DNA from: a virus
Strand: one strand, 5' to 3'
UHGV virus genome: UHGV-0033085
Length of the DNA: 64,000 bases
How positions within the stretch are numbered: the first letter of the stretch is position 1; the number at the start of each line of letters is the position of its first letter. The translations under genes and the position numbers were made by a program. Shown piece after piece: positions 3,050 through 54,633 of the stretch. The notes beneath the pieces are model-generated. The model searched no databases, had not been told where the DNA came from, and saw only the letters and a program-made list of their open reading frames with translations.

Positions 3050-3682
3050 ATGACGGTCGAAAAAGACGAGGTAAAAACTCGCCTGACACCAGCGGAGTGG
3101 GCCGAAGCTGAAGCCAAATGGACGTCAGGCGAATATACACTCTCAAAGCTGGAGGAAGAGTACGGCATTCGTCGTGAAACACTCTCCAGACATTTCAAAA
3201 AGCGAGGATTAGAGAAAGGCGCGGACTCTGTTGGGAAGATGGTTCGTGAGTCTCTTAAATCTGACGCAGAGCTTCGCGCTAAAGCCCGTGCGGAAAAGAT
3301 AGAAGAACGTCGTACACGTTATGACGGCTGGGCGTATGCGTTGGGGCAGATGGTGATGGTCGAAGTCACTACGGCCAAACGTGATGGTAAGCCTTTAGGG
3401 GCGATTGAGGATTCTCTCAAGAGCTTACAGAGAGCCAGTAATACCCTTGCAAAATGCTTTGAAGTTTCGTCCAAAGCATTGGGCATGGATCATGCGGAAA
3501 ATGACGAGGAAGAAATTCCGAACCTGGTATTTGGTGAGCTTACGCCTTCCCAGGTGGCGAAATTACGTCAGGAAGACGACGAGCCTGAAATCATCGATGA
3601 CGAATTGCTTGAGACGTTGGAAGAAGAAGCTCTAAGCGAATTTGATGCGACAGATGATGGAAGTGAAGGGGAGGACGAATAA
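3050..3682 (+). CDS. terminase small subunit (putative)
   Basis: Immediately upstream of TerL with ATGA-type coupling; N-terminal helix-rich region, strongly acidic C-terminal tail. Confidence 0.55.
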   Translation: MTVEKDEVKTRLTPAEWAEAEAKWTSGEYTLSKLEEEYGIRRETLSRHFKKRGLEKGADSVGKMVRESLKSDAELRAKARAEKIEERRTRYDGWAYALGQMVMVEVTTAKRDGKPLGAIEDSLKSLQRASNTLAKCFEVSSKALGMDHAENDEEEIPNLVFGELTPSQVAKLRQEDDEPEIIDDELLETLEEEALSEFDATDDGSEGEDE

Positions 3683-18039: not shown

Positions 18040-18081
18040 CTATCGACTGCCCCGGTCGGGGCAGTCTCACAAGGATGTGAG

Positions 18082-18417
18082 ATGGAAAGACAAACGTTTA
18101 ATTGGTATCCAGATTACGAATCTGAGAAAAGCGTAAAACCGAATGTAACGGTACTTAATTTTGGTGATGACTACGAGCAACGACAGGCTCAAGGTCTTAA
18201 TCGTATTAAAGAAGAATGGTCGTTAACCTTTACCAGATCATACAACGAAATTAATGCAATCGATGACTTCCTGACTGAGCGAGCAGGTGTTGAGTCGTTC
18301 TATTGGGTTAATCCAAGAGGAAAACGGATTGTAGTTGTATGCGACAGTCATACGGTCAAGCGATATCAAGGGTACGCAGTATTAACCGCTCCATTCAGAC
18401 AAGTATTTGAGGCTTAA
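18082..18417 (+). CDS. minor tail protein (lambda gpM-like)
   Basis: 111-aa ORF directly after tape measure. Confidence 0.55.
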   Translation: MERQTFNWYPDYESEKSVKPNVTVLNFGDDYEQRQAQGLNRIKEEWSLTFTRSYNEINAIDDFLTERAGVESFYWVNPRGKRIVVVCDSHTVKRYQGYAVLTAPFRQVFEA

Positions 18418-18499
18418 GCATCTGGATAAGTAAGTACTAATTTACTATTATTGTGGCGCTGACAGGATGTTAGCGCCTACTTATTTCAAGGATGAAACA

Positions 18500-19198
18500 A
18501 TGGGAATTAAAGCTGATATTCAGAGCTTATCTCCCTCTGCACTCATTGAGTTGTTCGTACTGGATATGTCGAACACAACTTCAGGGGGGAAGCTATTCTT
18601 CCACGCCGGAACAAACGAACTGATGCAACCGGTCGTCTGGCAAGGAGTGACATATGAGCCGTGGCCAATCAAAGCATCAGGTTTTGACAAAACGGGCCAG
18701 GGAACGTTGCCACGTCCAAAAATTCAGGTGTCGAACTTTGCCGGAACCGTCTCTGCGGAAGTTCAGGCAAACGACGATCTTGTTGGCTGCCGCATTATTC
18801 GCAAGATGACGCTGGCTCGCTTCCTCGATGCCGTTAATTTTAAAGACGGCAACCCAACAGCAGATCCAAACCAACATTTCCCGGATGAAATGTGGTTTAT
18901 CGAACAGAAAACTCTCGAAACTCATCAGGTTGTCGAGTTTGAATTGTCTAGTGTGTTCGATTTGATGGGGGTGCAACTGCCGTATCGTCAGATCATTAAA
19001 AACACCTGCCCGTGGAAATACCGAGGGCCAGAATGCGGCTATACCGGTCCATATTTCGACAAAAATAACCAGCAGACGTCTATGTCTGGTGCGGATTACT
19101 GCACAAAACGTTATGACGCCTGTAATGCGCGTCGGAATTATTTTGCCGACGGTGTGATCCATTTTGGCGGATTTATTGGAGCTACGCGGTATGGGTAA
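18500..19198 (+). CDS. minor tail protein (lambda gpL-like)
   Basis: ATG 18500; C-terminal Cys cluster CPWKYRGPECGY...C...C as in Fe-S containing gpL. Confidence 0.6.
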   Translation: MGIKADIQSLSPSALIELFVLDMSNTTSGGKLFFHAGTNELMQPVVWQGVTYEPWPIKASGFDKTGQGTLPRPKIQVSNFAGTVSAEVQANDDLVGCRIIRKMTLARFLDAVNFKDGNPTADPNQHFPDEMWFIEQKTLETHQVVEFELSSVFDLMGVQLPYRQIIKNTCPWKYRGPECGYTGPYFDKNNQQTSMSGADYCTKRYDACNARRNYFADGVIHFGGFIGATRYG

Positions 19199-23500: not shown

Positions 23501-25311
23501 CTGCAAGAGATGAAGCGGCGGCTCTTATTGCTAAGGAAAGCGAGGCTCGTGTAGAAGGTGATGCCGCAAACGCTAAACAACTGGAAGTGTTGCAGTCGAC
23601 GGTAGAGGAAAGTTCCGCAGCTGTTGAAGAAATGAAAAAGACGGTTGCAGAGGTCGATCGTGCCAGTGCAGAACTGACTACGAACATTGAGGCGTTAGCC
23701 AAAACAAATATTGACCTGGCTCTTCGTCAAGATGAAGACCAGCACAAGCAGATGGTCAATAACGCGAAGATCGCAACAACACAGAAAACCTTTGCTGATG
23801 ATATGTCTGCAATGGCCACGAAGGTTGAGGAAATTCGCGTAGAAATTGGCGAAGACATTAAGGCCAGTATTCTGGAAGAGTCCACCGCTCGTGCCGATGG
23901 CGATGAAGCGTTGGCAAAGCGTGTCACTCAGCTGCAATCTAAGTTTGAAGGAGATATCAGCGCGGCGATTAGTACAGAACAGGAGGCTCGTACATCTGCC
24001 GATGAAGCTTTGACGAAACAAATAACTCAGCTTGAGTCGAAAGTAAGCAACGATATTGTCGCAGCCATTAAGGAAGAGCAAGAAGCCCGAGCAACGGAAG
24101 ATTCGGCTCTGGCAAGCCAGATCACCCAACTTCAGGCAAAAGTTGATGATGATATTTCTGCTGCAATACGCAGTGAGCAGGAGGCGCGTGCGAGCGGAGA
24201 CTCTGCGTTAGCTAAACAAATAAACCAGCTTCAAGCAAAAGTTGACGGTGATATATCCGCCGCCATCACTCAGGAGCAGGAGGCCAGAGCAAGTGCTGAC
24301 GAGGCGCTCTCACGAGAAATTAACAGCCTGCGAGCACAGACCGGAACTGATATTGCCGCAGCGGTTGCTGTAGAGACAAAGGCAAGGACTGATGCCGATA
24401 GTGCATTGTCCACTCAGATTACGTCTCTTACAGCAAAAGCTAATGATCTCGAGGCATCTCTTGCCAGAGAAACAACGGCTCGTGCTGATGGTGATACCGC
24501 TTTAACAAAAGAGGTTTCAAGTTTAAAAGCACAGACTGCGAAAGATATTAGTGCGGCCGTTGCAGTTGAAACGCAGGCTCGAACTGATGCTGACTCGGCG
24601 TTATCATCTCAGATCACCAAACTGACCTCTCAATACAAAGAGGATATTAAAGCGGCTGTAGCAACCGAAACGAAAACGCGTACAGAGCAAGATGCGGCAC
24701 TGGCGACTCAAATCACAAACTTAGAGTCTCAAACAGCAGCCAACATTTCTGCGGCGGTCACAACTGAAACGACAGCGAGAACGCAGGCAGATAATGCTCT
24801 AAGTGGGCGAATCGACACTCTGAAAGCAGAGGTGGATGGAAATACCGCGACAATTCAACAGCAGGCAACAGCTATTGCTGATACCAACAAAAAAGTGTCA
24901 ACCGCGTGGACGTTGAAAATGGAGACTTCAACGAGCGGAGGGCAGAAGTATGTTGCTGGTATTGCGCTTGGTATCGACACCACTGGCCTTTCTCAGTTTT
25001 TGGTGCAGGCTGACAGGTTTGGTTTGGTCAACTCTGTTAACGGGAAGATCACCACGCCATTTGTTATCGAAAACAGTATCGCCTATATGAATGGTGCGTA
25101 TATCAAGGATGGCACAATCACCAATGCAAAAGTAGGCGATCTGCAATCTACCAATTTTGTTAGCGGTAGATCTGGATGGCGGTTCGGCAAAAATGGAACG
25201 CTTGAGATCAACGGTAATAGCGGGGGTAATGGGCGACTGGTCATAAATGGTCAGCGGATTGACGTTTATGACGATAACAACGTCCTACGAGTAAGAATTG
25301 GCCTTCTGTAA
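20587..25311 (+). CDS. central tail fibre / host specificity protein (lambda gpJ-like)
   Basis: about 1575 aa; conserved tip-attachment order; internal tandem repeats. Confidence 0.8.
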   Translation: MEQFKKKKLPLLIAGAGGKKSKSSSRTPVEADDTVNSRAMAAILDLLGEGVIGGLVNGAKSIFIDDLPILNEDGSSNFSGITWDFRDGSQDQTPMAGFDFVETPKSVNIQLKKTHDVTVSIDNDESDRVRVIMKFPSLRSVDKSSGDTNGTTVKYKFQIANGDATFSDVVAEGEKSVDITLTAKKTGVYYRSYELKLPKPGRAYKVRVIRLTDDNSSQYLYNDTWVDSIGEIVDTPMNYPNSALVGLKVNSEQFGSTMPSRSYLVRGIKIRVPSNYNEYTNTYVGVWDGTFKLLSSSNPAWILYDLLTNTRYGLGQFVSESMIDLGQLYQIGRYCDEEVDDGFGGKEKRFAINTQITSRQDAYRLIQDIAGAFRGMVFWAGGMVNIMQDSPSDPVMMFTNSNVKDGLFTYKGSARKDRPSVALVTYNNKEDGYKQNIEYVEDQDAMRRYGERKTEVVAFGCTSRGQAHRVGLWLLYTARMESDVITFTAGLDASFLMPGETVLIQNKYRAGKRNSGRIVEFTKNSITLDAPVSLAKSGSFIRILNQEGKIVERDVLETGENITKVTFSKALSSAETPVLNGVWTITEPDLEPMRVRIVNIAQGETPGSFDITAVENNPSKYEAIDNGATLIPQNTTVLDPTYSKPSNLQITEGTYLSSPGNLSVKLTATWEGKSPEYWISWRRSDENNVSNWQSARVTEEQYEIVNVAENGRYDFQLYAVSFNGKKTEIISTVYQVLGTMTPPDAPTSLTAVGDYRNVILNWVNPDSVDLDHINVYASQTNNLDTAKLIAESASTTFTHAGLGDSETWYYWVRASNKRGMLSPPNSNLGTEATTRDVLSFLAGKITSSELGQALLEDINSKASQEAVDELNEHINQSVESLEGSVNDVKEDIAELDKQFSDNLANFEIKFNERSDALENAQTELKGEVSATIDKVNEAFEKIDATDAAIVEIENTVSEHDKALANTVEAIKAARDEAAALIAKESEARVEGDAANAKQLEVLQSTVEESSAAVEEMKKTVAEVDRASAELTTNIEALAKTNIDLALRQDEDQHKQMVNNAKIATTQKTFADDMSAMATKVEEIRVEIGEDIKASILEESTARADGDEALAKRVTQLQSKFEGDISAAISTEQEARTSADEALTKQITQLESKVSNDIVAAIKEEQEARATEDSALASQITQLQAKVDDDISAAIRSEQEARASGDSALAKQINQLQAKVDGDISAAITQEQEARASADEALSREINSLRAQTGTDIAAAVAVETKARTDADSALSTQITSLTAKANDLEASLARETTARADGDTALTKEVSSLKAQTAKDISAAVAVETQARTDADSALSSQITKLTSQYKEDIKAAVATETKTRTEQDAALATQITNLESQTAANISAAVTTETTARTQADNALSGRIDTLKAEVDGNTATIQQQATAIADTNKKVSTAWTLKMETSTSGGQKYVAGIALGIDTTGLSQFLVQADRFGLVNSVNGKITTPFVIENSIAYMNGAYIKDGTITNAKVGDLQSTNFVSGRSGWRFGKNGTLEINGNSGGNGRLVINGQRIDVYDDNNVLRVRIGLL
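23860..24860 (+). repeat. degenerate tandem coding repeats (about 78 bp / 26 aa) inside J-like gene
   Basis: About 12 consecutive units of pattern D.AL..QIT.L..K...DI.AA...EQEAR. Confidence 0.6.
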
Positions 25312-25403
25312 TGTAGAAAAAAATATTTATATCGGTAAAAATAAGTAGGTACATACTTAATGGTGGGCAAGGATAGCCCACCAAATCAAGGAGCATATTC
25401 AAC

Positions 25404-28400
25404 ATGTGGTACAGGGAAGGTACTATCACATTTACACAGGGCAGCAATACTCTGGTTGGGGCAGGGACAGCCTGGAACGTAACAGCTAATGGTGTGTTGC
25501 CGGGGATGATCGTCATTGGCCCCGACAACAAGCTGTATGAGATCAAGCGCGTAACCAGTGATACGAACATTGTTCTCTCAGAACCTTATACCGGCGAAAC
25601 TCAGTCTGAAGTTCCGTGCCGAATCATTACGACCTATGAAGGCGACTTAACACAGTTTAGCGCGCGCTTTACTGCACTAATGTCGCGTATGTCGGCTGAT
25701 TCAAAGTCCATGCGCAGTTGGTTGACTGCTCTGGATGAGGTGACAATCGAGCGTGAAGACGGTACAGAAGTGACCGTTAAGCCGCTAATGCAGATCGTCA
25801 ACGAGCACAACGAAAACGTTGAGTGGTATAAAAATAACACTGACGCGATTAATGCTGCTGGCGACAAAGCTCGTGAGGCGGCGGCCAGTGCTGCCGCAGC
25901 AGCCGAAAGCGCCAATACCGCTGGAGAAAAAGCCTCTCAAGCGTCTCAAAGTGCATCCGCTGCGGCATCTTCACAAAGTGCTGCAAGTGCGAGTGCAACT
26001 GCTGCGAAAAAATCTGAAACGAACGCAGAATCAGCACATCTAGCGGCAGCAGAATCAGCGTCTGTAGCGTCGACCAAAGCATCGGAGGCAGCAACATCTG
26101 CGTCCAGTGCCTCTGCATCTAAGGATGCAGCCAAAGCATCAGAGACTAACGCTTCATCGAGTGCAAACGCGGCTGCATCATTTGCAACAGAAGCTGAAAA
26201 TTCGTCTAAGGCAGCAAAAGCGTCAGAGACAAACGCAAAAGCATCTGAAACGGCAGCCGGGCAGAGTGCATCGTCTGCAAACAGTTCGAAATCTGCGGCA
26301 GAAGCGTCAGCAAGCGCAGCCTCAGCAAGTGCGGATAGTGCTTCATCAAGTGCAACTGCGGCAGGAAAATCTGCGGATAGTGCATCGTCATCAGCGACAA
26401 TAGCTACCACAAAAGCGACAGAGGCGACAAGTCAGGCTACAGCTGCTAAAAATTCAGCATCGGCAGCAAAAACCTCTGAAACAAATGCAAAGGTCTCAGA
26501 AGACAATGCGGCTTCCTCTAAGGCGGCAGCTGCTGAATCTGCAAGTTCTGCGTCTGCATCAGCCACCTCAGCATCCGCTTCAAAAGATGAGGCGACCAAG
26601 CAGGCATCAGCAGCGAAGGGTAGTGCTTCAACGGCATCCACGAAAGCAACAGAGGCGGCAGGTAGTGCGACGGCTGCATCTCAGAGCAAAGCTGCTGCTG
26701 AATCCGCTGCGACCCGTGCAGAAGCTGCCGCTGATCGTGCTGAAGAGATCGCCGGTGCAGTTGCGATGGAAGACGCAAGCCTTACCACCAAAGGTGTTGT
26801 GAAACTTAGCAGTGCTGTCGATAGCACCAGTGAATCGCTGGCCGCAACGCCAAAGGCAGTTAAAGCAGTCAATGACAATGCGAACAGCAGGGTGCCATCT
26901 AACCGAAAAATTAACGGGAAAGCACTGACTGCGGATATCACATTAACGCCGAAAGATATTGGTACTTTAAATTCAATAACGATGTCTTTCTCTGGCGGGG
27001 CCGGGTGGTTCAAACTGGCTACTGTTACAATGCCACAAGCGAGTTCCATCGTTTACATCGCATTGATTGGTGGCGCTGGTTACAACGTCGGCTCCCCACA
27101 TCAGGCAGGCATTTCAGAACTGGTTCTACGAGCAGGCAATGGAAACCCCAAAGGGATTACAGGTGCTTTGTGGAAGCGTACAGCTGTCGGATTAACGAAT
27201 TTCGCCTGGATCAACACATCCGGCGATACATATGATATTTACGTTGAAATTGGCAATTATGCGACGAGTGTAAATATCCATTGGGATTGTACTGCAGATG
27301 CGTCAGTTTCTATTTATACATCGCCAACATATTCAGCGAGTAAGCCTTCCAGCGTTACCGATGGTGTTGTTTATACGATGTATAGCACACATCAGAAACC
27401 TACACCATCAGATATTGGAGCACTGCCAACAACCGGAGGAACAGTTTCAGGTCCGTTGTCTGTTACAGGTGGATTAACTGGTTCATTGAATGGTAATGCA
27501 AGTACAGCCACGAAATTGCAGACGGCAAGATCTATCGGTGGAGTTGTTTTCGACGGTTCTGCAAATATTAACCTTCCAGGTGTAAACACTACGGGTAATC
27601 AGAACACTACTGGTAATGCTGCAACTGCTACAAAACTTCAGACTGCAAGAAAAATATCCGGTGTTCCATTTGATGGTTCTACTGATATCACTTTAACCGC
27701 TGCGCATGTTGCCGCTTTCGCAAGAAGGGCAACAGGGTCATATGCGGATGCTGATGGTGGCGTTCCCTGGAATGCCGAATCAGGCGCTTACAATGTCACC
27801 AGCTCTGGCGAAAGCTATATTCTGGTTAACTTCTATACCGGAGTCGGAAGTTGCCGCACCCTGCAGATGAAGGCACATTACAGAAATAGAGGTCTGTTCT
27901 ACCGTTCTTCAAGAGACGGTTATGGTTTTGAAAGTGGTTGGGAGCAGGTTTACACGACTGGATTTATGCCTCAGCCGGCTGATATAAACGCACCAACCGC
28001 TGCCGCTGGATGGTTAAATAGTGGTAACGGAACGGCATTTACGACTGCTCAATTTATAACTTGGCTAAATAATCAGGGGGCATTTACAAACAAACATTGG
28101 ATCGCACGGTGCTCATGGACTTACGCCAACAATAATTATATAGACGACACTGGTTGCGGTAGGATCGATCTATCTGGTTCCGTGATTGAGGTGTTTAGTA
28201 ATAAGGCAACAAGCCACTACACTATTCGTGTTACAACGACAACAACATCAGGTCATGGTGGTGTTAATAATGCGGAATTTATTTATGTGTACAATGGGAG
28301 TGATTATGCGCCAGGCTGGCGTCGTTCTTATAACACTAGAAACAAACCAACAGCTTCTGATGTAGGAGCATTACCGCTTTCAGGTGGCACATTATCTGGA

Positions 28401-44654: not shown

Positions 44655-45758
44655 ATGAAAAATAGCTTTGACAGAGCACGCGCTGCGGAGAACACCTCAA
44701 AAGAGGCGATTGAGTATCTCGAAAGAGCATCTCAAATGCAGGCCGTTATGATCTCCCAGGTCAGCAATGACATGAGATTCTCGGACGCATTCATGTTATT
44801 CACTCGCTTATCTCTGCTGATAACAAGACGTCGGCCAGAGATCGCTGTTCATTGTATTTTGATACATGTTTTGCCGCACATTGCCGATGTAAAAGTAAGT
44901 GACATTAATAGGTTCATGGTGAACCAACTGGTCAACCCACTAATACTGGATGGCAAAATTGTTATGGGCCGCCGCGTTTTCTCTCTGATGAAGCAGTTCC
45001 TTAGCTGGTGCGCCTTCCAGGGGATGATAGACGTGTCACCGTTAAACGATATGTCACTTAACAAAGTTGCCGGTGGCGCAAAGCCCACACCTCGCGAGCG
45101 GAAGCTGACCGACGCAGAGGTATGGGTGTTCTGGAATATATGGGACTACTTCAATGTGTGCGCTGGTACAAAATGGGCGGCCAGGCTGTGTCTTGTATCC
45201 GCAAGACGACCTGACGAAGTACTGCGTGCTAAAAAAAGTGAGTTCAATCTTAAGCGTGGGGTTTGGAATCAAGGCAAGAGGAACAAATCTGCCCGTGAGC
45301 ATTCGCTGCCTTTAAGCACATTAATGCGCACATGTATTGAAGAGTTGTTCGAATACGGTAAAGGCAGCCAGTGGCTCGTGCCTTCGAATAAAAAAATCGG
45401 GAAAGACCTTCCTATGTCTAAAGTGGCAATAGCCCAGGCATTACGTCGTATTCTGGAACGACCAGAACTGATGGAGCTTGAGCCATTTACACCCCGAGAC
45501 TTGCGCCGTACTGCGCGTAGTTACTTCCCAGCATTAGACATAAGCCAGGAGGTATCACGCAAAATCATGAACCACAGTCTTGAGGGGATAGATCGAGTCT
45601 ACGACCGGCACGATTATATGGACGAGATGCGAGACGCCTTAGAAAGTTTCTCGACGTACATCGCATCAATCGTAGAGCAACCGGATTTAGACGAAATTGA
45701 CCACAAATTCAAGGGAGATCGTCTATCAACAGAGCTTATTCGTGTAAATTTTTCATAG
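44655..45758 (+). CDS. tyrosine site-specific recombinase (integrase/resolvase family)
   Basis: C-terminal catalytic pattern: R in LRRTARSY, H in MNHS, Y in RVYDRHDY. Confidence 0.75.
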   Translation: MKNSFDRARAAENTSKEAIEYLERASQMQAVMISQVSNDMRFSDAFMLFTRLSLLITRRRPEIAVHCILIHVLPHIADVKVSDINRFMVNQLVNPLILDGKIVMGRRVFSLMKQFLSWCAFQGMIDVSPLNDMSLNKVAGGAKPTPRERKLTDAEVWVFWNIWDYFNVCAGTKWAARLCLVSARRPDEVLRAKKSEFNLKRGVWNQGKRNKSAREHSLPLSTLMRTCIEELFEYGKGSQWLVPSNKKIGKDLPMSKVAIAQALRRILERPELMELEPFTPRDLRRTARSYFPALDISQEVSRKIMNHSLEGIDRVYDRHDYMDEMRDALESFSTYIASIVEQPDLDEIDHKFKGDRLSTELIRVNFS

Positions 45759-46139
45759 AGACTTTATGGCCTCAACAACCTTTTGTGATGCGCCTTTCTC
45801 TTTACCGAATCGCTCGTTATATGCAGCAAGAACCTGTTTTTCGTCCTCGTTAAGAGGAGCGGTGCCTTCTTTGTATAAAAATGCTGCGAGTTCAGGTTGG
45901 CGTTCTTCCAGCACCATCATCATAAGACGACTTGGCTCAATACCCAGCGCCAGCGCCAACGGACGAACCTTATCGATAGGCAAAGGAATTTTGCCACTTT
46001 TAATTAAAGAAAGGTTGTTGGCATTTTTATAACCAATAAGTCTGGCTATTTGGGCCTGACTCATAGGTGAGGATTCAATCAGCCCTGCGATAAAAGCAGC
46101 ATAGCGACTTTCTATAAATTCAATCTTGTTGTCAGACAT
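45753..46139 (-). CDS. XRE-family HTH transcriptional regulator (candidate repressor)
   Basis: HTH segment MSQAQIARLIGYKNANNLSLIKSGK; convergent with recombinase. Confidence 0.6.
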   Translation of the reverse strand: MSDNKIEFIESRYAAFIAGLIESSPMSQAQIARLIGYKNANNLSLIKSGKIPLPIDKVRPLALALGIEPSRLMMMVLEERQPELAAFLYKEGTAPLNEDEKQVLAAYNERFGKEKGASQKVVEAIKSL

Positions 46140-46170
46140 TGTTACAACCTTTGCGCGTTCAATTCTCTCT

Positions 46171-46184
46171 GGTAAGTGCTTACC
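46171..46184. promoter_or_regulatory. palindrome GGTAAGTGCTTACC in regulator upstream region
   Basis: Perfect 6-bp arms; same core as dispersed GTAAGTA motif family. Confidence 0.4.
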
Positions 46185-46389
46185 GATATTACATCAAAGG
46201 TTAGGGTTGTAAAGCTATTATCATTTTTTCGATAGGCACTTAAAAGACCGGTTAAAGGCCATTGCACGGAGAAAAATTAGCCCAAAACAGGTAAGAAAAT
46301 TAACTTGCATATGATATGAATGTATTCAGTATTGATATAAATTTTAGTAGTATTCCTTACCATAGTATAAGTTAGAATGGATTGATTGA

Positions 46390-46602
46390 ATGAACACCAC
46401 TATTTCCAGCCTAATCGCTCTTGAGATCGGACACGTACAGAAATTAGCTGATGAGTGTGTAGCTGACATCCTCACCGATCTACCGAATGAGCAGATTCAG
46501 GTTGGTGTGAATGACACAACTGGCTTTATATTCGAACTTAACAACAAACGCTTCACGCTTCTCAATATCGGCTCCGGGTCTTTAGCCGTCAGAATCTGTT
46601 AA
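46390..46602 (+). CDS. hypothetical protein
   Basis: 70-aa ORF followed by 9-bp stem hairpin CTGCGCGAA...TTCGCGCAG. Confidence 0.3.
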   Translation: MNTTISSLIALEIGHVQKLADECVADILTDLPNEQIQVGVNDTTGFIFELNNKRFTLLNIGSGSLAVRIC

Positions 46603-46700
46603 CCCCTCTTCTCCCTGCGCGAATGGCTTAGTTCCCTGTTCGCGCAGTGCTACATTAAACACAGTAGTAAATAATTTGTTTTCATAACAAAGGATTAGCC

Positions 46701-48809
46701 ATGTCTAAAAAACGTTCCATCAAAGAGGTTCAGGACTTCCGTGACAGTGTAAAACGAGTAGTCGCTCTCCTTTCAGGTAAAAACATCCCTGTTGCAGAAC
46801 GAGGGGACGACGCTTATGTACGCTATAACGATGATGGAGAGCCAATTCTCGTAAACATCCCATCAATCCCGGATAACGCAACACCGGCATTGATGAATGC
46901 TGTGCGCGGATTTCTCGATCATGAGGTTGCTCACATTTTGTTTACCGATATTCGTGTGTCCAACAAAATGAGAGAAAAAGGACGCGTTCCTTCCTGGTCG
47001 CTATGGAATGCCTTAGAAGACGTGTTCATCGAGCGAAAAATGGGTCAGGTCTTTAACGGAACAAGACGTAATCTGATGGCAACTCAGCGCCTTATAATCG
47101 AAAAAGTCTTTAAACCAAAGGCTTCAGAGGCTATTGCTTATTGTGGCAAAGATCAGCGCGCGCTTTTTCTAAACTTCTTTCTCTGTCCGGTTGTAAGAGC
47201 CTGGGATGGCCAAGCACCGTTCGTAGATTTCATGGATGAACATTGGCCTGTCATTGAGAAACCAATTTCATTATTAAAAGAACATGGTATCGATGTGGCC
47301 GTGCGTAACATGTCTTGCACCGAGGATTGTGTAAAGGTGGCTGCGACCATAGCTAAGATCCTCAAAGACACTGAAAGTGAAAGCAAAGGTAAGGAGTCAG
47401 CTCCGGGAAAAACTTCCGATCCTTCAGACGCTGACCAGACGGATGCCTCTGGAGAAAACAATGAAGACAACGAAGATCATGAGACACCCTCAGCGTTAGA
47501 TAATCACAAATCTATCAAATCAGAATCACATAGTAAGTACAAACATGATAATAACGACAGTGATGATTCAGATAATTCTGAATCATCAGAAACAATATTC
47601 GATGATACAGAAAATGATAAAGAGGTATCAGATTCTGATGCTTCTGATAACGCGGCGTCAGAATCATTAACCGCTGACCACGAAAAAAGAAAAACGACAG
47701 AAGACGGCTCTTCAGATATCCCAACTCCGTCAAAAATGAGTCTGGAAGAGGCTTTAGAGGAGTTGGATAGCATGGAAGATGAAGTCGGAGGCATGACAGA
47801 AGATGCGCTATCCGAAACGATTAAAAGCGAGTTAACAGAAAGCTCGAAAAGCGAATACAGGCCATACAATCGCTCATACGACTTCATCGGCTCGATTGAT
47901 CAGGCAGAAGCCCATATCAAACGGCTTATTAAAACATTCTCCGATATTGATTTGGGAGGATATCCAATCAGCCGCTATCGCATCGTTCCTGAAGGCAACC
48001 AGCTCTTCGACAAATATATTGAAAAGCATCTTTCGTCAGGTGTTTCGTCGACGCTGGCAAAAGACCTGGAGCGAGCAATAGCAAGCAGAAACAGAGTTCA
48101 GTTTATACCGGGCCAGCGTCGGGGGCGCATTCATGGTTCTAGTATCTACAGATTAGCAATGAATGATGCTCGCGTGTTTCGTAAAAAAGAAGAATCTAAA
48201 GCCGTTAACGCCTGTGTTCAACAAGTGATTGATTTATCAGGTTCAATGAGTGGTATAACGATTAAACTGGCTCTTGCAAGTGCATATACCATCGCCGATG
48301 CCCTTGATCGAATAAATGTTCCCAACATTATCACCGGCTTCACTACATTTGGTAGTCATATGGCGGCAGGAGAACTTAAGGCTGTCAAGTATGAGTTCTC
48401 TCGCTTTGAATCTTTAATGCTACCTATCATCAAAAATTGGAATGAAAAGGTAAATTCTCGCGAAGTTCGCTCACGTATGGGGTGCGTAGGCTACACATTC
48501 CCACTTCTTAATAACGTGGATGGTGAAAGCATAGCCAGCCTTGCATCGTTATTTTCCGGTCGCTTGGAGGACAGGAAGATCATGCTTGTTCTGAGTGATG
48601 GCGCGCCGTGGGCTGTTGGGAGAGGTTTTGACGCTCATTTGCGTTCAGTTGCGAAGCAAATTGAAACGCAGACTGATATTGATTTGATGGCAATTGGCAT
48701 CATGACTGACGCACCGGAGAGATTTTACTCAAATCATGCCCTGGTAACGAGCGTTGATAGTCTTGGTTCATCTGTAGTTACTGAACTATCTCGTATCATT
48801 TTAAAGTGA
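46701..48809 (+). CDS. CobT-like protein with C-terminal vWA domain
   Basis: MIDAS motif DLSGSMSG; long Asp/Ser/Glu-rich acidic middle region; adjacent to AAA+ partner. Confidence 0.6.
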   Translation: MSKKRSIKEVQDFRDSVKRVVALLSGKNIPVAERGDDAYVRYNDDGEPILVNIPSIPDNATPALMNAVRGFLDHEVAHILFTDIRVSNKMREKGRVPSWSLWNALEDVFIERKMGQVFNGTRRNLMATQRLIIEKVFKPKASEAIAYCGKDQRALFLNFFLCPVVRAWDGQAPFVDFMDEHWPVIEKPISLLKEHGIDVAVRNMSCTEDCVKVAATIAKILKDTESESKGKESAPGKTSDPSDADQTDASGENNEDNEDHETPSALDNHKSIKSESHSKYKHDNNDSDDSDNSESSETIFDDTENDKEVSDSDASDNAASESLTADHEKRKTTEDGSSDIPTPSKMSLEEALEELDSMEDEVGGMTEDALSETIKSELTESSKSEYRPYNRSYDFIGSIDQAEAHIKRLIKTFSDIDLGGYPISRYRIVPEGNQLFDKYIEKHLSSGVSSTLAKDLERAIASRNRVQFIPGQRRGRIHGSSIYRLAMNDARVFRKKEESKAVNACVQQVIDLSGSMSGITIKLALASAYTIADALDRINVPNIITGFTTFGSHMAAGELKAVKYEFSRFESLMLPIIKNWNEKVNSREVRSRMGCVGYTFPLLNNVDGESIASLASLFSGRLEDRKIMLVLSDGAPWAVGRGFDAHLRSVAKQIETQTDIDLMAIGIMTDAPERFYSNHALVTSVDSLGSSVVTELSRIILK

Positions 48810-48904
48810 ACAAAACAGCCTTAACGATAAGTAACCACTTACGATATATAATGATATATTTATATAAGAAGTTGAACGCTCATTAGAGAACAAAGGAAAA
48901 ACGC

Positions 48905-50140
48905 ATGACGACTACTGCACTGCAAAATGAAAAAAATCCTTCTGATTACCTTGTTTGCAAGTGGTGCGGCAAATCATTTCACTATTTTAAGTCCCATGTA
49001 GCCAATGGTAATTGCGAGGGCATTCCTGAGTCAGTAAAAGATGCCGATCCTGACACCGTACTGAAAATGTACACAACGCAGTTTCCAGATGAACCAACGC
49101 TATCGAAAAAGGCACTTGATGCAATTCAAGCTAAACGTGCCGAGCAAAAAAGCGAAATGGCCAAATCTTCTGGCTTGACCAGTAGCCCTGGCTACACAGG
49201 CACAGTTGAGTACAAGACAGATCTGGTCGCAGCTCACGAACTGCTAAACGTAACAGTGGAAGAACTCGGAACAAAACGTGGGACGCCGCTCATGGTTAGC
49301 GTCAACGTCAATACGCCGTATCCAGAGTTCGTTCCCGAAGTGAAGAAAGGCTACGTATATGGCGACTTCGAACTGATCAAAGATATTTTCATGATGCTTG
49401 AACTTGGCATACCTGGCTATTTGTGGGGTCATGCAGGAACAGGCAAATCGTCATTGCCTACACAGCTATGTGCTTTGCTCAATCGTCCGTTGATCCGTGC
49501 CCAACATACAGCATCAATGGAAGAGGCACATGTTACGGGGCAAATTCTGGCGCGTGATGGCTCTACGTATTTCGAACCTGGCTTGCTTGCGCTCGCAATG
49601 AAGCATGGCTGGGTTTACCTCGCGGATGAATACGACTTTGCGTTTCCACAAATTCTTGGCGTGTATCAGCCAGTGCTGGAAGGTGAAGCGTTGGTCATCA
49701 AAGAGGCAACTCCAGAATGGCGTCGCATTACTCCGCATGAACGGTTTGCTTTCATTGGCACTGGCAACACGAACGGATCTGGTGATGAAACCGGCTTGTA
49801 CCAGGGTACAAACATCCAGAACGCCGCGAACTTTTCGCGTTTTGGCATCGTTTCGAATGTGAAATACATGAGCAAAGACGCAGAGATCAACATGTTGACA
49901 AATGCAGGCATCGTGGATGAATACGCTGAAAAGATGGTTAAGTTTGCCGGTATCGTTCGCGATGGATACGAAGAACACCTCATTAGTCAGCCAATTGGCC
50001 CTCGTGAACTTTTGTTGTCGGCCAAGATTGGAATGATGCGAGGCGACTTTGTGACAGGTATTGAGCGTTCTTTCATTAACAAACTCCCTTCAGCTTCTGC
50101 ACAAGCGGCTCGTGAAGTTGTTCAAAAAATATTTGGTTAA
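48905..50140 (+). CDS. CobS/MoxR-like AAA+ ATPase
   Basis: Walker A GHAGTGKSS, Walker B YLADEYD; N-terminal Cys/His cluster CKWCGKSFHYFKSH. Confidence 0.6.
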   Translation: MTTTALQNEKNPSDYLVCKWCGKSFHYFKSHVANGNCEGIPESVKDADPDTVLKMYTTQFPDEPTLSKKALDAIQAKRAEQKSEMAKSSGLTSSPGYTGTVEYKTDLVAAHELLNVTVEELGTKRGTPLMVSVNVNTPYPEFVPEVKKGYVYGDFELIKDIFMMLELGIPGYLWGHAGTGKSSLPTQLCALLNRPLIRAQHTASMEEAHVTGQILARDGSTYFEPGLLALAMKHGWVYLADEYDFAFPQILGVYQPVLEGEALVIKEATPEWRRITPHERFAFIGTGNTNGSGDETGLYQGTNIQNAANFSRFGIVSNVKYMSKDAEINMLTNAGIVDEYAEKMVKFAGIVRDGYEEHLISQPIGPRELLLSAKIGMMRGDFVTGIERSFINKLPSASAQAAREVVQKIFG

Positions 50141-50192
50141 TCGTGCGTAAAGGATGTTTCGGCTCTCTTATCGCTGCTTCTGAAACTGGTAA

Positions 50193-50219
50193 GGCTTGTC
50201 TGGTGTGTCCAGACAAGCC
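50193..50219. promoter_or_regulatory. perfect 11-bp stem hairpin in gap before polymerase gene
   Basis: GGCTTGTCTGG-TGTGT-CCAGACAAGCC, no U-tract. Confidence 0.35.
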
Positions 50220-50320
50220 CGATTGTCACCAATCAGCAAAAGAAGTTGCGATTTCGATGCATGGGAAGTTCGTAGGCTTCCACAATGACAAAATCAAAAA
50301 AACCAGAAAGGTAAAAACAC

Positions 50321-52684
50321 ATGAAGGCACTGATGGTTCGAACTGACTTCTCACTTGGGGAGTCGGCTCTAAAAGCAGAAAACGCGGTGAAGATTGCCAG
50401 AGAAGCTGGCTACACCGCTGTAATTTCAGCAGATAGCATGAATATTGCGAGCGTTATTCCACTACAACGTGCCGCTGGTGACGACATGGCGGTTATTTGT
50501 GGTGTGAAACTAAACATTGTTGATGATCCCACATACGAGCACCGGGCTAAACTTGCTAAAGAATCTATGAGATGTATGGAATCATTAGAGCGAGGACGTA
50601 ACTACTCGTTTACCGCTCTAATTAAAAATGAGAAAGGATATCGCGACATCTGCGAACTAATGACGGCGGCCAACACACGAGAACAGTTCTACTTTGTACC
50701 GCGTCTCTCGCTCGAACAGTTGGTTTCTACATATGCCAAAGGCAACATCATCCTGCTTACTTCCGACATCGGTAGCGTGTTCCAACGCAACGATTTTGCA
50801 AAAATCATAAGCACACTGATTACAGCGGGTGGAAAAGACAACTTCTATAGTGTGGTTTATCCGCACCCTACCCCATTCTACGACCAGATTAACGTCCGGG
50901 CGATGAAAGTCGCCAGCGCATTGAAAATAGAGCCAGTGGCGTTCTATCCCGCTTATTACGAATCGATCGACGATGCAGACATTAAAGACATTGCGCACAT
51001 GGTTACGAACAACATCAAAATCGACCAGCCGCATCGTCTGCGTATCCCCCACCAGCGAGATAACGCCGTCAATGGTCGCCGCCATCTCCTTGAGGCGCTT
51101 AAAGCCTTCTCCGTTCGCATGGATGTGCCGGTAACAGCTGCAATGGCCTCAACAACGCAGGATACCATTATCGATGCCTGCACATGGCGCTGGCATGAAT
51201 TGCCGCCAGCACTGCCAAAGATGGCAGACGACGAGCCTGCAACGCTGATGAAACTGGCTGTTGCAGGGCTGCGTAAACGTCTTACCACAAAAGAGTTTGG
51301 CTACACACCACCTGCTTCTGAGAACAGGGTTTATGTTGAGCGGCTAAAGTACGAAATGGACACGCTGACTCGCCTGGGATTCTGTGGTTACTTCCTGATG
51401 GTGCGCGATCTGATGAATCATAGTCGTGAAACTGGCATTCCCGTTGGGCCTGGTCGTGGTTCCTCTGCCGGTTCTCTGGTGGCGTGGTGCATAGGCATAA
51501 CCAACGTCGACCCAATCCGTCACGGTCTTCTGTTTGAGCGTTTCATCAACCCTGAGCGTCTCGACTTGCCGGATGCGGACTTGGACTTCAGCCAGGCACG
51601 TCGCCATGAGGTGATCGAGTATCTGAATGAACGCTACGGCGAAGATTACGTTGCAGGCATTCCGAACTTCACCTACCTGGGCGCAGCCTCTGCACTACGT
51701 GATACCGCTCGTATTTATGGTGTGGAGTCCGCAGATATGGCGGTATCAAAAGAGCTGAAGAACGTCGAGGATGATAGCCTTCCATTGGAGGAGCTGCGCG
51801 AACAACTGGCAAGTCTCGACAAATACGCAACAAAATATCCTGATGCATTCAATGCAGCCTGCAAGTTACAAAGCCTTATGCGTGGCTTTGGTAGACATGC
51901 GGCAGGGATGATCGTAGCAGGTGTTCCTCTGACAGAACGTACACCGGTTGAACGCCGTGGTGACGCGCGTTGTATCGCATTTGACAAGCGTTACTGCGAG
52001 GCTATGGGCCTAATTAAGCTGGACGTACTCGGTCTGGCAACTCTCGATTTGCTCGATAGTGCAAAACGCTACATAAAAGAGAACACAGGTGAAGATATCA
52101 ATCTTGATGCCATTTCTCTTGAAGATCGCAAGGTGCTGGATGGTTTTGCTGCAGGGTATACACAGGGCGTATTCCAGCTTGAATCAGGCCCAATGCGCAA
52201 GCTGCTTAAAGATTTAGGTGGTGGAATTGAGCCAATGAGCTTTAAAACGGTCGTCGCTACAACTGCGCTCTTCCGACCTGGCCCGATTCAATCCGGCATG
52301 TTGGACGATTATGTGTCCGTGGCCAAAGGCTTCATGGCCCCACATTCCTTACACCCAATGCTGGACGACATCTCTCGCGACACAAACGGAGTTCTGATTT
52401 ATCAGGAACAGATCATGGCTGCTACGCGAATCTTGGCGGGGTTCTCAATGGCGGAAGCAGACTCGGTCAGGAAAGCGATCGGGAAAAAAGATATGGAGAA
52501 AATGAAATCCATTGGCGGCGACTTCATTAAGCGAGCGGAGGAAGGCTGGGTGACAGTGTCACTGGATGATGGTTCTACGAGAAAAATCCATAAAGCAGCA
52601 CGCCTACTTTGTGCTGATGGTGAGCGTCGCACTTATGCCGAAGCAATGGCAATAAATGCCGACATAACGAGCTTCGATATTTGA
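50321..52684 (+). CDS. dnaE: DNA polymerase III alpha (DnaE-type), N-terminal fragment; last about 45 codons non-homologous
   Basis: PHP-like N-terminus; core motif GPGRGSSAGSLVAWCIGITNVDP, LLFERFINPER, DADLDF; homology ends near 52546. Confidence 0.8.
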   Translation: MKALMVRTDFSLGESALKAENAVKIAREAGYTAVISADSMNIASVIPLQRAAGDDMAVICGVKLNIVDDPTYEHRAKLAKESMRCMESLERGRNYSFTALIKNEKGYRDICELMTAANTREQFYFVPRLSLEQLVSTYAKGNIILLTSDIGSVFQRNDFAKIISTLITAGGKDNFYSVVYPHPTPFYDQINVRAMKVASALKIEPVAFYPAYYESIDDADIKDIAHMVTNNIKIDQPHRLRIPHQRDNAVNGRRHLLEALKAFSVRMDVPVTAAMASTTQDTIIDACTWRWHELPPALPKMADDEPATLMKLAVAGLRKRLTTKEFGYTPPASENRVYVERLKYEMDTLTRLGFCGYFLMVRDLMNHSRETGIPVGPGRGSSAGSLVAWCIGITNVDPIRHGLLFERFINPERLDLPDADLDFSQARRHEVIEYLNERYGEDYVAGIPNFTYLGAASALRDTARIYGVESADMAVSKELKNVEDDSLPLEELREQLASLDKYATKYPDAFNAACKLQSLMRGFGRHAAGMIVAGVPLTERTPVERRGDARCIAFDKRYCEAMGLIKLDVLGLATLDLLDSAKRYIKENTGEDINLDAISLEDRKVLDGFAAGYTQGVFQLESGPMRKLLKDLGGGIEPMSFKTVVATTALFRPGPIQSGMLDDYVSVAKGFMAPHSLHPMLDDISRDTNGVLIYQEQIMAATRILAGFSMAEADSVRKAIGKKDMEKMKSIGGDFIKRAEEGWVTVSLDDGSTRKIHKAARLLCADGERRTYAEAMAINADITSFDI

Positions 52685-52732
52685 GAATTAATTTATAAGA
52701 TAAGAAAACAATTTGTTTAGTGAGTCTTAGAA

Positions 52733-53467
52733 ATGCCGAGTACGAAGTACAAAATCACAGAAGAATGGTTACGTCAGCGTTACATGGTTGACCTGATGAG
52801 AAAAGAAGACATTGCCGCCGAAGCTGGTTGCAGCAAGGCAAATATTGACCGCTTATTAGCCAAATGGGGGATCAGGCGCGGAAGCGCGCGGATCTCCGCT
52901 ACCCCAGCCTGGAATCGTGGCAAAAACAAAAATAATGACGAACGTATGAAGCGTCTCTCCGAAGCCCGGACTGGCACTGGCAACCCTATGTATGGGAAAA
53001 CCTCGTGGAATGCCGGTCTGCGTGCTGATATCGATGAGCGAGTGGCCACCGTTTCGAAAAAGCTAACCGGCAGAACAATCCGCGCGGAGACGAAGGAAAA
53101 GCTGGCGGCTGCCAAACGTGGAAAGATCGGAGAAGAAGCGAACAACTACAAAGGTGGCATCATCGTAAAAACCAACGGCTACATGATGCAGCTGGTTGGT
53201 AACAATGGCGTTTCGCAATACGAATACGTTCATCGATTGATAGCGAAAGAACGTCTCGGTCGGGAGCTACGTGACGATGAACATGTCCACCATATTAACC
53301 GCGATACGATAGATAACGCCCCTGGGAATCTTGTAGCACTTCCAGAAGACGCCCACATTCGCCTGCATAGTGAAATGCGTGAAGAGATATGGAGCTGGGA
53401 GCGCCAACGGAACTGGCTGGCCTCCAATGGGTATGAGTTCGTGAAGATTGATGAGGTGACTGCATGA
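52733..53467 (+). CDS. HNH homing endonuclease (NUMOD-like repeats + HNH)
   Basis: HNH motif HHINRDTIDNAPGNLVALPEDAHIRLH; repeated GKxxWNxG / KRLSEARTG-type motifs. Confidence 0.8.
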   Translation: MPSTKYKITEEWLRQRYMVDLMRKEDIAAEAGCSKANIDRLLAKWGIRRGSARISATPAWNRGKNKNNDERMKRLSEARTGTGNPMYGKTSWNAGLRADIDERVATVSKKLTGRTIRAETKEKLAAAKRGKIGEEANNYKGGIIVKTNGYMMQLVGNNGVSQYEYVHRLIAKERLGRELRDDEHVHHINRDTIDNAPGNLVALPEDAHIRLHSEMREEIWSWERQRNWLASNGYEFVKIDEVTA

Positions 53468-54633
53468 AAATTACCGGTGTTGTCGAAGAGAGCAATGGCC
53501 TGACGCACGAACGAGCCGAAGAAATCTGGAATATGTTTGAGAAATCCGGCGCGTATGCCTTCAACAAATCACACTCTGTTGCTTACTCCTTAATCAGTTA
53601 TCAATCTATGTGGTTGAAAACTCATTATCCCGCGGAGTTCTTCGCTGCTGCTCTCACTATTCTTGGCGAAGATAAACACCAGGGGCTGGTTAAAGATGCG
53701 CTGACCTATGGTATTCGCGTATTGCCACCAGACGTTAACGTGTCATCTAACCGAATCGAGATCCGCACGCTTGAAGATGGCAGCCAGGTGCTGTATGCGC
53801 CCTTCTCTGCTGTGAAAGGGTGTTCTGAGAATGGCTGCCAAGCCATCATGAGAGCGCGAGAAAAAGTTGGCGGCAAATTCGAGTCACTGGCGCAATTCGA
53901 AGAAGCTGTCGAGAAACGTGCCTGTAATAGTCGAGTGCGCGAATCGCTGCAAAAAGTAGGGGCGTTTGCATCCATCGAGCCAGGTAGTCTGCCAGCAACT
54001 GATCCAGAGCGCCTACGCGACCAGGCTGAATTGATGGGAAACCTTGTCATAGACGCAGTTAAAGCCTCACGTCCGTTTGAGATGAACCCCAAACGTTCGG
54101 CTGAGATTAACGTACTCATGACGCGGATGGCGGCTGAAATGGGCTTAGGTGATGAACTAATCCGCCCCAGCATTGGTATTAAGCCGAAAATCATGATCAT
54201 TCTGGACAATGCGAACGGCAATGATGCTCGAACCGGTTACTTTATGGAGAACGGATACGACGATTTTAAGGCCAAGCTGTTGACGGCTGGGGATTTGCGC
54301 ATGGGCGATCTCTATGTCACAGGCGTTTGCAAAAAGGTGAAAGACAAAGAAAAGGACTACACCAAAGACGAGATCGGCCAGTTCACCGACTTTATGCGTG
54401 AAGAGATCAATCTGGTGCGCCCGACCTATGTGCTGACGTGTGGTAGCCGGGCAACGGCATTGTTTAACAACAAAAACAAGCCATCCGATTTGGTCGGCAG
54501 GAAGGAGTATCTTCCAGACCTTGACGTTACTGTCTTTTACGGGTTTAACCCCAACATTCTTTACTTCAGACCTGAAGAGGGAGAACGACTAGAAGCGATA
54601 TTAGCCGACGTAGCAGAAACTATTAAGTCGTGA
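53464..54633 (+). CDS. dnaE: DNA polymerase III alpha (DnaE-type), C-terminal fragment
   Basis: Motif YAFNKSHSVAYSLISYQSMWLKTHYPAEFFAA; own ATG with GAGGTG upstream. Confidence 0.8.
   Translation: MKITGVVEESNGLTHERAEEIWNMFEKSGAYAFNKSHSVAYSLISYQSMWLKTHYPAEFFAAALTILGEDKHQGLVKDALTYGIRVLPPDVNVSSNRIEIRTLEDGSQVLYAPFSAVKGCSENGCQAIMRAREKVGGKFESLAQFEEAVEKRACNSRVRESLQKVGAFASIEPGSLPATDPERLRDQAELMGNLVIDAVKASRPFEMNPKRSAEINVLMTRMAAEMGLGDELIRPSIGIKPKIMIILDNANGNDARTGYFMENGYDDFKAKLLTAGDLRMGDLYVTGVCKKVKDKEKDYTKDEIGQFTDFMREEINLVRPTYVLTCGSRATALFNNKNKPSDLVGRKEYLPDLDVTVFYGFNPNILYFRPEEGERLEAILADVAETIKS

Follow-up and report, generated by a model that had tools for sequence, protein, structure and literature searches.

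A CobT/CobS-like vWA adaptor and AAA+ ATPase pair beside the replication genes of an SSU5-like Escherichia coli phage-plasmid: a candidate protein-remodelling machine with a predicted zincin site

Introduction

The best-described relatives of the gene pair analysed here are CobS and CobT of cellular cobaltochelatase (Brucella melitensis/Pseudomonas denitrificans; PDB: 9ujv, 9uka), an AAA+ ATPase and an adaptor with a von Willebrand factor A (vWA) domain that carries a full MIDAS (metal ion-dependent adhesion site). For Brucella, CobS, CobST, and CobSTN have been solved by cryo-electron microscopy and crystallography, and these structures serve as the mechanistic template (preprint 10.64898/2026.07.21.739949). 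According to the same preprint, the N-terminal domain of Brucella CobT (CobT_N) has a fold resembling that of M48C peptidases, and the C-terminal helix alpha10 of CobS (A322–V326) docks onto it. CobT also contains a disordered linker of about 90 residues and a shaft that enters the AAA+ ring, a function assigned to residues Q373–R413 of the Brucella protein only. The pair studied here consists of a CobT-like adaptor gene and a CobS/MoxR-like AAA+ ATPase gene at positions 46701–50140 of a 64,000-nucleotide stretch of the virus genome UHGV-0033085, referred to below as the window.

The systems NorQ/NorD, CbbQ/CbbO, RavA/ViaA, and CoxD/CoxE likewise combine an AAA_5-type ATPase with a client-gripping vWA/MIDAS partner. 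The partners of the NorD, CbbO, ViaA, and CoxE type differ from the phage adaptor in lacking a CobT_N/zincin domain, and their clients are respiratory or carbon-fixation enzymes, which are absent here. In magnesium chelatase BchI/BchD (ChlI/ChlD), an AAA+ motor is combined with an adaptor that contains an acidic linker plus, at its C-terminus, a vWA/MIDAS domain. The N-terminal domain of BchD is AAA+-like, whereas that of the phage adaptor is zincin-like, and no search of the pair gave a significant match to the magnesium chelatase family. Among phages, a MoxR/vWA pair with an N-terminal metallopeptidase from group 2.2 jumbo phages follows, judged by its description, the same three-part logic (PMC7824862). 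A role in virion assembly has been proposed for the jumbo-phage pair, whereas the pair in the window belongs to the probable replication operon of a phage-plasmid that is temperate.

The pair as such is not a new feature: it has been annotated in many records, frequently under wrong names. A cobST two-gene cluster was described in tailed viruses of eight host orders, including archaeal viruses, and was proposed to hijack the host CobN (Liu et al. 2021, PMC8651126). The pair in the window belongs to this family without essential difference, the retention of the HEXXH motif and of the ATPase zinc finger varying by lineage. A first-pass annotation of the window had described the role of such pairs in phages as not established, which agrees with the literature in that no experimental function has been reported, but the feature itself is well documented (PMC8651126).

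We consider it probable, at about 0.6, that the pair is an ATP-driven protein-remodelling machine of the MoxR/vWA class, possibly proteolytic, which is expressed together with the replication genes and is not a vitamin B12 gene.

Domain organization of the CobT-like adaptor

The adaptor matches the Pfam families CobT (residues 9–294, E = 2.2e-27) and CobT_C (residues 492–701, E = 1.8e-81), as well as phrog_1576 (E = 1.8e-300), and its best match of known structure is Brucella CobT (E = 1e-16). Of the 4989 relatives identified in an exhaustive search, 511 had an E-value of 1e-30 or less. Conservation was evaluated in the best 146 full-length representatives of 50%-identity clusters, which are 30–58% identical to the adaptor.

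The MIDAS residues D511, S513, S515, N605/D607, and D633 are 100% conserved in the 146 representatives, and D511, S513, S515, N605, and D633 align with D422, S424, S426, N518, and D546 of Brucella CobT. The segment preceding the vWA domain, equivalent to the shaft of Brucella CobT by alignment, contains Gly471, Gly475, and Phe493, which are at least 97% conserved. The linker is composed of aspartate, glutamate, and serine to 42%, has a net charge of -34, and is the most gapped and least conserved region of the adaptor. A match of DrmE from the PADLOC defence models (E = 9e-4, 15.9 bits) lies inside this low-complexity linker and was judged to be noise.

The first-pass annotation had reported two open reading frames (ORFs) of 702 and 411 residues, with an architecture like that of CobT and CobS. 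It had pointed to the MIDAS motif DLSGSMSG and an acidic middle region in the first product, and to the motifs GHAGTGKS and LADEYD in the second. Both ORFs lie at the stated coordinates on the + strand, and translation confirmed all of these features, DLSGSMSG corresponding to residues 511–518 (nt 48231–48254), and profile searches place the proteins in the CobT and CobS/MoxR (AAA_5) families.

Zincin motif of the adaptor N-terminal domain

The N-terminal domain of the adaptor contains the motif H74-E75-V-A-H78 (nt 46920–46934), followed by Asn103, Glu106, Asp107, and Glu111 (nt 47007–47033). This motif predicts an intact zinc site of the zincin type, with one of the downstream glutamates as the putative third zinc ligand. 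HExxH is present at this position in 143 of the 146 cluster representatives. The residues His74, Glu75, His78, Glu106, Asp107, and Glu111 are conserved to 97–99% (93–99% with Asn103 included), and the mean column identity of the domain is 49%. The PHROGs family phrog_459, named 'peptidase', matches adaptor residues 72–128. HEXXH is also present in SSU5-like elements, in Rhizobium phage RHEph10, in the 'peptidase' of cyanophage P-SSM2, and in Gordonia phage GMA3.

The phage-type adaptor differs in this motif from cellular CobT, which has DS[MI]AL[RK] at the same place. HExxH is absent from all 81 cellular CobTs sampled (Shinella and 80 further sequences, Hyphomicrobiales), which commonly read RG.(G/A)DS[MI]AL[RK] at this place. 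The homology and register of the two domain types are upheld by an hhalign comparison of the phage-type and cellular alignments (E = 2.4e-5 over 130 columns), in which HEVAH stands opposite DSMAL. This homology came from hhalign; a search of the PDB with the phage-type domain profile did not retrieve Brucella CobT_N, and phmmer with the domain against the PDB gave only chance matches to HLA chains.

The N-terminal domain profile also weakly matches the anti-CRISPR protein AcrIIA26 (PDB: 9zq6_B, E = 0.004) at approximately residues 94–139 (46980–47117). The match spans the conserved N..ED..IE...G..N block and may be due to chance or be a remnant of shared ancestry.

The AAA+ ATPase and its predicted N-terminal zinc finger

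The ATPase matches Pfam AAA_5 (E = 2.1e-15) and phrog_249 (E = 1.1e-106). Its best match of known structure is Brucella CobS (E = 1.1e-25 over residues 142–411), with weaker matches to CbbQ and NorQ. The Walker A, Walker B, sensor, and arginine-finger residues occupy the same positions as in cellular CobS, and nine divergent sequences of phage and cellular origin all share Gly175, Gly178, Gly180, Lys181, Asp241, Glu242, Arg312, and Arg367. The CbbQ_C domain of the CbbQ/NirQ/NorQ C-terminus (PF08406) was found in many homologues with 43–48% identity and was not reported for the window ATPase at E ≤ 0.01.

The two ends of the ATPase differ from those of cellular CobS. The last residue aligns with residue 315 of the 328 residues of Brucella CobS, and the tail of the Shinella protein, VELKESAANIVLEATV, has no counterpart; the window ATPase therefore lacks the helix that docks onto CobT_N. 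Cellular CobS begins about 40 residues before Walker A, whereas the window ATPase has about 140 additional residues at its N-terminus. The first-pass annotation had noticed a cluster of cysteines and histidines there without giving it an identity. The cluster, CKWCGKSFHYFKSHVANGNC (residues 18–37, nt 48956–49015), is present and appears to belong to a zinc finger of the Ros/MucR type.

Residues Cys18, Cys21, His26, His31, Tyr56, and Ser67 are invariant in one set of 67 homologues and in another of 38, and the pattern C-x2-C-x9-H-x3-5-[HC] fits 96 of 113 full-length homologues. Most homologues share with Ros87 (PDB: 2JSP) the spacing C-x2-C-x9-H-x4-H, followed by (T/S)xxxY...P. The Pfam family ROS_MUCR (PF05443; profile positions 58–120, cut-off 25.4 bits) matches the relative P0177 with 28.8 bits, and P0172 and the Acinetobacter, nickie, and RHEph10 proteins below the cut-off (25.3, 23.8, 16, and 14 bits, respectively). 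When a profile of the finger family, including the window sequence, was compared with the PDB, the top match was Ros87 (E = 5.9e-5), with the ligands in register, and the next match had an E-value of 0.025. Homology of the finger to Ros/MucR is thus supported at the level of the family, and DNA binding by the finger is a hypothesis drawn from this similarity. The AlphaFold2 model of the ATPase N-terminus is acceptable, with a predicted local distance difference test (pLDDT) score of 78, and of 77–89 over residues 11–70. A search of the literature found no report of a fusion of Ros/MucR to an AAA+ ATPase.

The finger is present in a clade of siphoviruses and phage-plasmids of about 100 kb and absent from the homologues of ICP2, P-SSM2, and Staphylococcus phages. 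The ATPase of Gordonia phage GMA3 (556 residues; 3011–4678 of its stretch) has a different, longer, cysteine-rich N-terminal extension, so the N-terminal additions of phage CobS-like ATPases vary by lineage.

Relationship to cobaltochelatase

The homology of the two proteins to CobT and CobS is secure, and by their profile scores they are not equivalogs. The adaptor scores 66.6 bits against the NCBIfam CobT equivalog TIGR01651 (cut-off 759.05), and the ATPase 86.6 bits against the CobS equivalog TIGR01650 (cut-off 558.55). The adaptor shares with cellular CobT the CobT_N-type domain, the acidic linker, the shaft or its equivalent, and the vWA domain with a full MIDAS, and in both systems the two genes are adjacent. 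The cobT-like gene precedes the cobS-like gene in the phage, whereas cobS precedes cobT in the one cellular locus examined, that of Shinella. Cellular CobS lacks the N-terminal extension of 140 residues that bears the finger and has the C-terminal docking helix.

The cellular system has a CobN partner and a B12 pathway, whereas there is no CobN-like ORF within the 64-kb window. Apart from the pair and dnaE, the ORFs longer than 450 residues encode the tape measure protein, protein J of the tail tip, a tail fibre, and a further protein that has no Pfam match. E. coli has no de novo pathway, and B12 production in this host calls for about 30 genes, heterologous cobN, cobS, and cobT included (PMC6249242). 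The statement of the first-pass annotation that the pair has no cobalamin pathway context is in line with both observations.

These comparisons bear on the published idea that the pair acts as a genuine cobaltochelatase motor and hijacks the host CobN, or a subunit of the ChlH/BchH type, to make cobalamin for B12-dependent nucleotide metabolism (PMC8651126). The idea has in its favour the clear homology, the conserved ATPase motifs, MIDAS, and shaft-equivalent segment, its publication as a hypothesis, and the fact that the genus or order of some carrier hosts (Rhizobium) supplied cellular cobT loci. Aerobic B12 synthesis in Pseudomonas and Gordonia, which are also carrier hosts, counts in the same direction. 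Against it stand the host, which lacks the pathway and for which no CobN-like ORF is supplied by the window, the scores 8- and 6-fold under the equivalog cut-offs, the zincin motif retained here and found in 0 of 81 cellular CobTs, and the missing docking helix. Moreover, the carriers include phages of Vibrio cholerae, Staphylococcus aureus, and Listeria, hosts that to our knowledge have no CobN.

Distribution and genomic context

The window shares 99.5% identity with CP053388 ('Escherichia phage CMS-2020a') and 98.5% with phage Cyrano, an SSU5-like phage-plasmid of E. coli LF82 (PMC9928086), and by sequence it is itself an SSU5-like E. coli phage-plasmid. In SSU5, which is 72.5% identical, the pair is annotated as 'porphyrin biosynthesis proteins'. 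The public 90%-identity cluster has 3307 members; these go by 'cobalamin biosynthesis protein CobT', 'cobaltochelatase CobT-related protein', or else 'porphyrin biosynthesis protein'. The Cyrano record (OV696614, 12001–15440) names the genes 'dimethylbenzimidazole phosphoribosyltransferase' and 'cobalamin synthetase'. These names result from a collision with the unrelated CobT and CobS of the Salmonella nomenclature, and the same mix-up is found in a 2024 phage paper.

A CobT-like gene is present in about 1000 plasmid records, of clinical plasmids from enterobacteria and Acinetobacter (Klebsiella 345, Escherichia 228, Acinetobacter 147, Enterobacter 92, Yersinia 63, and Salmonella 49). Among the phage records searched, a CobT-like gene occurs in 74 and a CobS-like gene in 801, mostly of cyanophages. 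The carriers of CobS-like genes include phages of Staphylococcus, Listeria, Rhizobium, Pseudomonas, and Gordonia, as well as Vibrio phage ICP2, and there is also a Stenotrophomonas homologue. A match in Xanthomonas phage JGB6 was not used, as the record is broken into many short ORFs. A function specific to plasmid maintenance was rejected: homologues occur in ICP2, cyanophages, and Staphylococcus Kayvirus, which give no sign of a plasmid lifestyle.

The MoxR/vWA class is characterized by an AAA_5-type ATPase gene beside a vWA/MIDAS gene, and the two are adjacent or nearly so in the other two-gene lineages. The order of a cobT-like gene, a cobS-like gene, small ORFs or a sigma factor, and dnaE is found in Rhizobium phage RHEph10, Pseudomonas phage nickie, and Acinetobacter pA52-1. 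It also occurs in metagenomic phages of about 100 kb and in two integrated prophages, one of Ectothiorhodospira and one of Photobacterium. Unrelated phages carry more weight. In the podovirus ICP2, the pair, with the cobT-like gene first, is followed by genes of a primase, a helicase, and a DNA polymerase of a different, family-A-type kind. The T4-like cyanophage P-SSM2 has its 'peptidase' and cobS genes, with three small ORFs between them, in the interval from gp46 to gp45/gp44, the genes of the clamp and clamp loader. The order is reversed in Gordonia phage GMA3, where the ATPase comes first and the two genes are still adjacent.

The first-pass annotation had placed the pair immediately upstream of the polymerase gene. 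The pair is upstream of dnaE, but a cysteine-rich ORF of 67 residues lies between them. It starts 2 nt past the stop codon of the cobS-like gene, and its end overlaps the start of dnaE (50321) by 26 nt. The gap between the cobT-like and cobS-like genes is 95 nt. A promoter and terminator scan of 45700–50400 gave nothing that exceeded the shuffled expectation, and on the + strand the spaces between the genes hold no terminator-like site. Because of the short gaps, the 26-nt overlap, and the lack of a terminator-like site on the + strand, it is likely that the pair is co-transcribed with the replication genes, and the cysteine-rich ORF is probably co-transcribed with its neighbours.

Function of the pair

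By analogy with Brucella CobST, the mechanism that combines ring, shaft, and MIDAS has probably been retained in the phage pair. Six ATPase subunits would form a ring, the shaft of the adaptor would be inserted into the ring pore, and ATP hydrolysis would move the adaptor, the MIDAS face of which would grip a protein client. The client is CobN in the cellular enzyme and would be another protein in the phage. The predicted zinc site suggests that the adaptor may also cleave or process the client, the finger may serve to bring the machine to DNA or to a protein partner, and the gene context suggests that the machine would act early in lytic growth, together with DNA replication.

Several observations weigh against this reading. 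HEXXH is gone from the pair-bearing phage nickie (DSEISK), Acinetobacter pA52-1 (DQEVAK), and ICP2 (DFKLLR), so proteolysis cannot be essential for every member of the family; judged by the motif, catalysis may be strongly selected in this clade and dispensable in some lineages. A Pfam scan of 22 divergent N-terminal domains matched CobT only and no named peptidase family, and the cellular CobTs compared come from a single bacterial order. The AlphaFold2 model of the N-terminal domain, based on 19 closely related rows, was poor (pLDDT 56, with residues 1–123 below 50) and was not used, so the active site is predicted from the motif; Foldseek with this model gave matches only at E > 3.

The finger differs from Ros87 in being fused to an AAA+ ATPase and in lacking an oligomerization domain. 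Ros/MucR proteins need basic flanks and an N-terminal oligomerization domain for DNA binding and silencing (PMC7710501). The phage finger has no such basic flanks, its region being neutral (net charge 0 in the window and -0.3 on average in the family), and it is located 14–17 residues from the N-terminus, which leaves no room for the oligomerization domain. In the window, Cys37 replaces the fourth ligand, a histidine in Ros87, and there is an acidic insertion of 12 residues; the window finger fragment alone reaches no Pfam threshold and has no match to ROS_MUCR. A Foldseek search of the PDB with the model of the ATPase N-terminus found no structural neighbour, with nothing below E = 1.9, so the Ros-like fold is a prediction from sequence profiles. 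The synteny with dnaE is inherited within the SSU5-like clade and is not independent evidence, and a literature search found no experimental study of any phage CobS/CobT homologue.

A more specific, speculative version, which we consider unlikely, is that the pair is a DNA-recruited, ATP-driven metalloprotease machine that frees phage DNA of host proteins for the phage replisome. The Ros/MucR-type finger would bring the AAA+ ring to AT-rich phage DNA, and the vWA/MIDAS domain would grip a DNA-bound host protein, such as a silencer of the H-NS/MucR type, a factor of replication or defence, or a protein-DNA complex that has become trapped. The ring would extract this protein while the zincin site cut it, so that the template would be cleared. 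If this were true, the pair would correspond, in a bacterial virus, to the p97/Cdc48-SPRTN/Wss1 system of eukaryotes, and cellular CobT would descend from an active protease-adaptor that has lost catalysis.

It is similarly doubtful that the pair is a virion-assembly chaperone, a MoxR-vWA(-peptidase) system that folds, assembles, or proteolytically matures structural proteins. Such a role was proposed for the group 2.2 T4-like jumbo phages, citing the precedent of the Acidianus two-tailed virus, in which a MoxR-vWA system is needed for tail development (Iyer et al. 2021, PMC7824862). The conserved HEXXH motif and the annotation of the cyanophage homologue as a 'peptidase' would also fit maturation, but in every lineage examined the pair lies outside the structural module and has early genes or genes of replication or recombination as its neighbours. 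In the window, the genes of the tape measure, tail tip, and tail fibre lie at approximately 13–29 kb, about 17 kb from the pair, a position that is suggestive only.

MoxR-vWA pairs typically mature or reactivate metalloenzymes, which counts for a chaperone that inserts a metal cofactor into, or activates, a replication enzyme, in the manner of NorQ/NorD, CoxD/CoxE, and CbbQ/CbbO. One example would be loading of the metal cluster of the DnaE PHP domain: a dnaE with this domain follows the pair throughout the clade of SSU5, nickie, and RHEph10, and NorQ and CbbQ are among the PDB matches of the ATPase. We regard such a chaperone as decidedly unlikely, as the pair is also found beside unrelated replication systems, the family-A-type polymerase of ICP2 and gp45/gp44 of P-SSM2, and the protease-type motif and the zinc finger would be left unexplained. 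The cobaltochelatase motor that hijacks CobN is very improbable for the reasons given above.

It is routine to class homologues of CobS and CobT as 'vitamin B12 auxiliary metabolic genes'. For this clade, the label of a B12 gene is probably wrong, because the host, according to the literature, lacks the partner enzyme, a predicted protease-type zinc site is kept, and the ATPase carries a finger that is absent from genuine CobS. If so, metabolic inferences from viromes need correction. The remaining interest of the pair lies in an unsolved phage function and in two sequence features that, together with a host lacking CobN, speak against the usual B12 label. SSU5-like phage-plasmids are a genetically tractable model, and identification of the client is feasible because E. 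coli K-12 MG1655 is the host on record for a close relative, PhiR41_1.

Neighbouring genes

The positions of the pair, its domains and motifs, and the neighbouring genes are given in Table 1. The upstream order of an integrase gene, a gene of a helix-turn-helix (HTH) repressor-like protein, and a small ORF recurs in Cyrano and Acinetobacter pA52-1 as well as in metagenomic phages and integrated prophages.

Table 1. Features of the adaptor–ATPase locus and its surroundings (window coordinates; Brucella residues are those of CobS for the ATPase motifs).
Feature	Position	Strand	Basis or characteristics
Integrase	44655–45758	+	Upstream neighbour; ORF, Pfam, PHROGs
HTH repressor-like gene	45753–46139	-	Upstream neighbour, divergent; ORF, Pfam, PHROGs
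Small ORF, 70 aa	46390–46602	+	Upstream neighbour; phrog_2627
CobT-like adaptor, 702 aa	46701–48809	+	ORF; Pfam CobT and CobT_C; phrog_1576
CobT_N-type N-terminal domain, aa 1–225	46701–47375	+	HEXXH zincin motif intact
Asp/Glu/Ser-rich acidic linker, aa 226–440	47376–48020	+	Composition; length varies among relatives
Shaft-equivalent segment, aa 455–500	48063–48200	+	Aligns with the Brucella CobT stretch preceding the vWA domain
vWA domain with complete MIDAS	48201–48806	+	D511, S513, S515 (nt 48231–48245), N605/D607, D633
CobS/MoxR-like AAA+ ATPase, 411 aa	48905–50140	+	ORF; AAA_5; phrog_249
Putative Ros/MucR-type zinc-finger module, aa ~14–70	48944–49114	+	C18-x2-C21-x4-H26-x4-H31-x5-C37, then Y56...P61..P64..S67
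AAA+ module	49328–50137	+	Walker A, Walker B, sensor-1, arginine finger, sensor-2
Walker A, G175–S182 (GHAGTGKS)	49427–49450	+	Brucella G71–S78
Walker B, D241-E242 within LADEYD (aa 239–244)	49619–49636	+	Brucella D141-E142
Sensor-1, N288			Brucella N186; residue-by-residue alignment
Arginine finger, R312			Brucella R210; residue-by-residue alignment
Sensor-2, R367			Brucella R271; residue-by-residue alignment
Cys-rich ORF, 67 aa	50143–50346	+	Between the ATPase and dnaE; phrog_6337 (8.9e-44)
Replicative polymerase DnaE, split	50321–54633	+	Pfam PHP, DNA_pol3_alpha, finger, HHH_6, HNH_3, NUMOD3

Between the small ORF and the start of the cobT-like gene, at 46615–46647, there is an inverted repeat of 9 bp, CTGCGCGAA ... 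TTCGCGCAG, with a loop of 15 nt. A T-run is lacking, and the repeat is thus not a typical terminator. The position of the 67-residue ORF is occupied by small ORFs in the Photobacterium prophage and by a sigma-70-like gene in other relatives.

The dnaE gene of the window consists of an N-terminal part of 787 residues (50321–52684) and a C-terminal part of 389 residues (53464–54633), which are interrupted by an ORF of an HNH/NUMOD3 homing endonuclease (52733–53467). The gene is unbroken in Cyrano, where it is 3507 nt long, and is broken at a similar point by a NUMOD4 ORF in Acinetobacter pA52-1. DnaE of this clade has a C-terminal domain of the uracil-DNA-glycosylase superfamily (PF03167), which is matched weakly in the window (E = 0.0055; 53464–54633) and is also listed for DnaE of three relatives, weakly in one case. 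In Cyrano, dnaE is followed by genes of UvsY, a gp32-like single-stranded DNA-binding protein, an exonuclease, and RecA. The RecA gene of the Ectothiorhodospira prophage (17375–19188 of its stretch) contains an intein, indicated by a weak Intein_splicing match between two RecA_N matches, and the unusual length of the Cyrano RecA gene (2340 nt, 23929–26268) suggests an intein there too.

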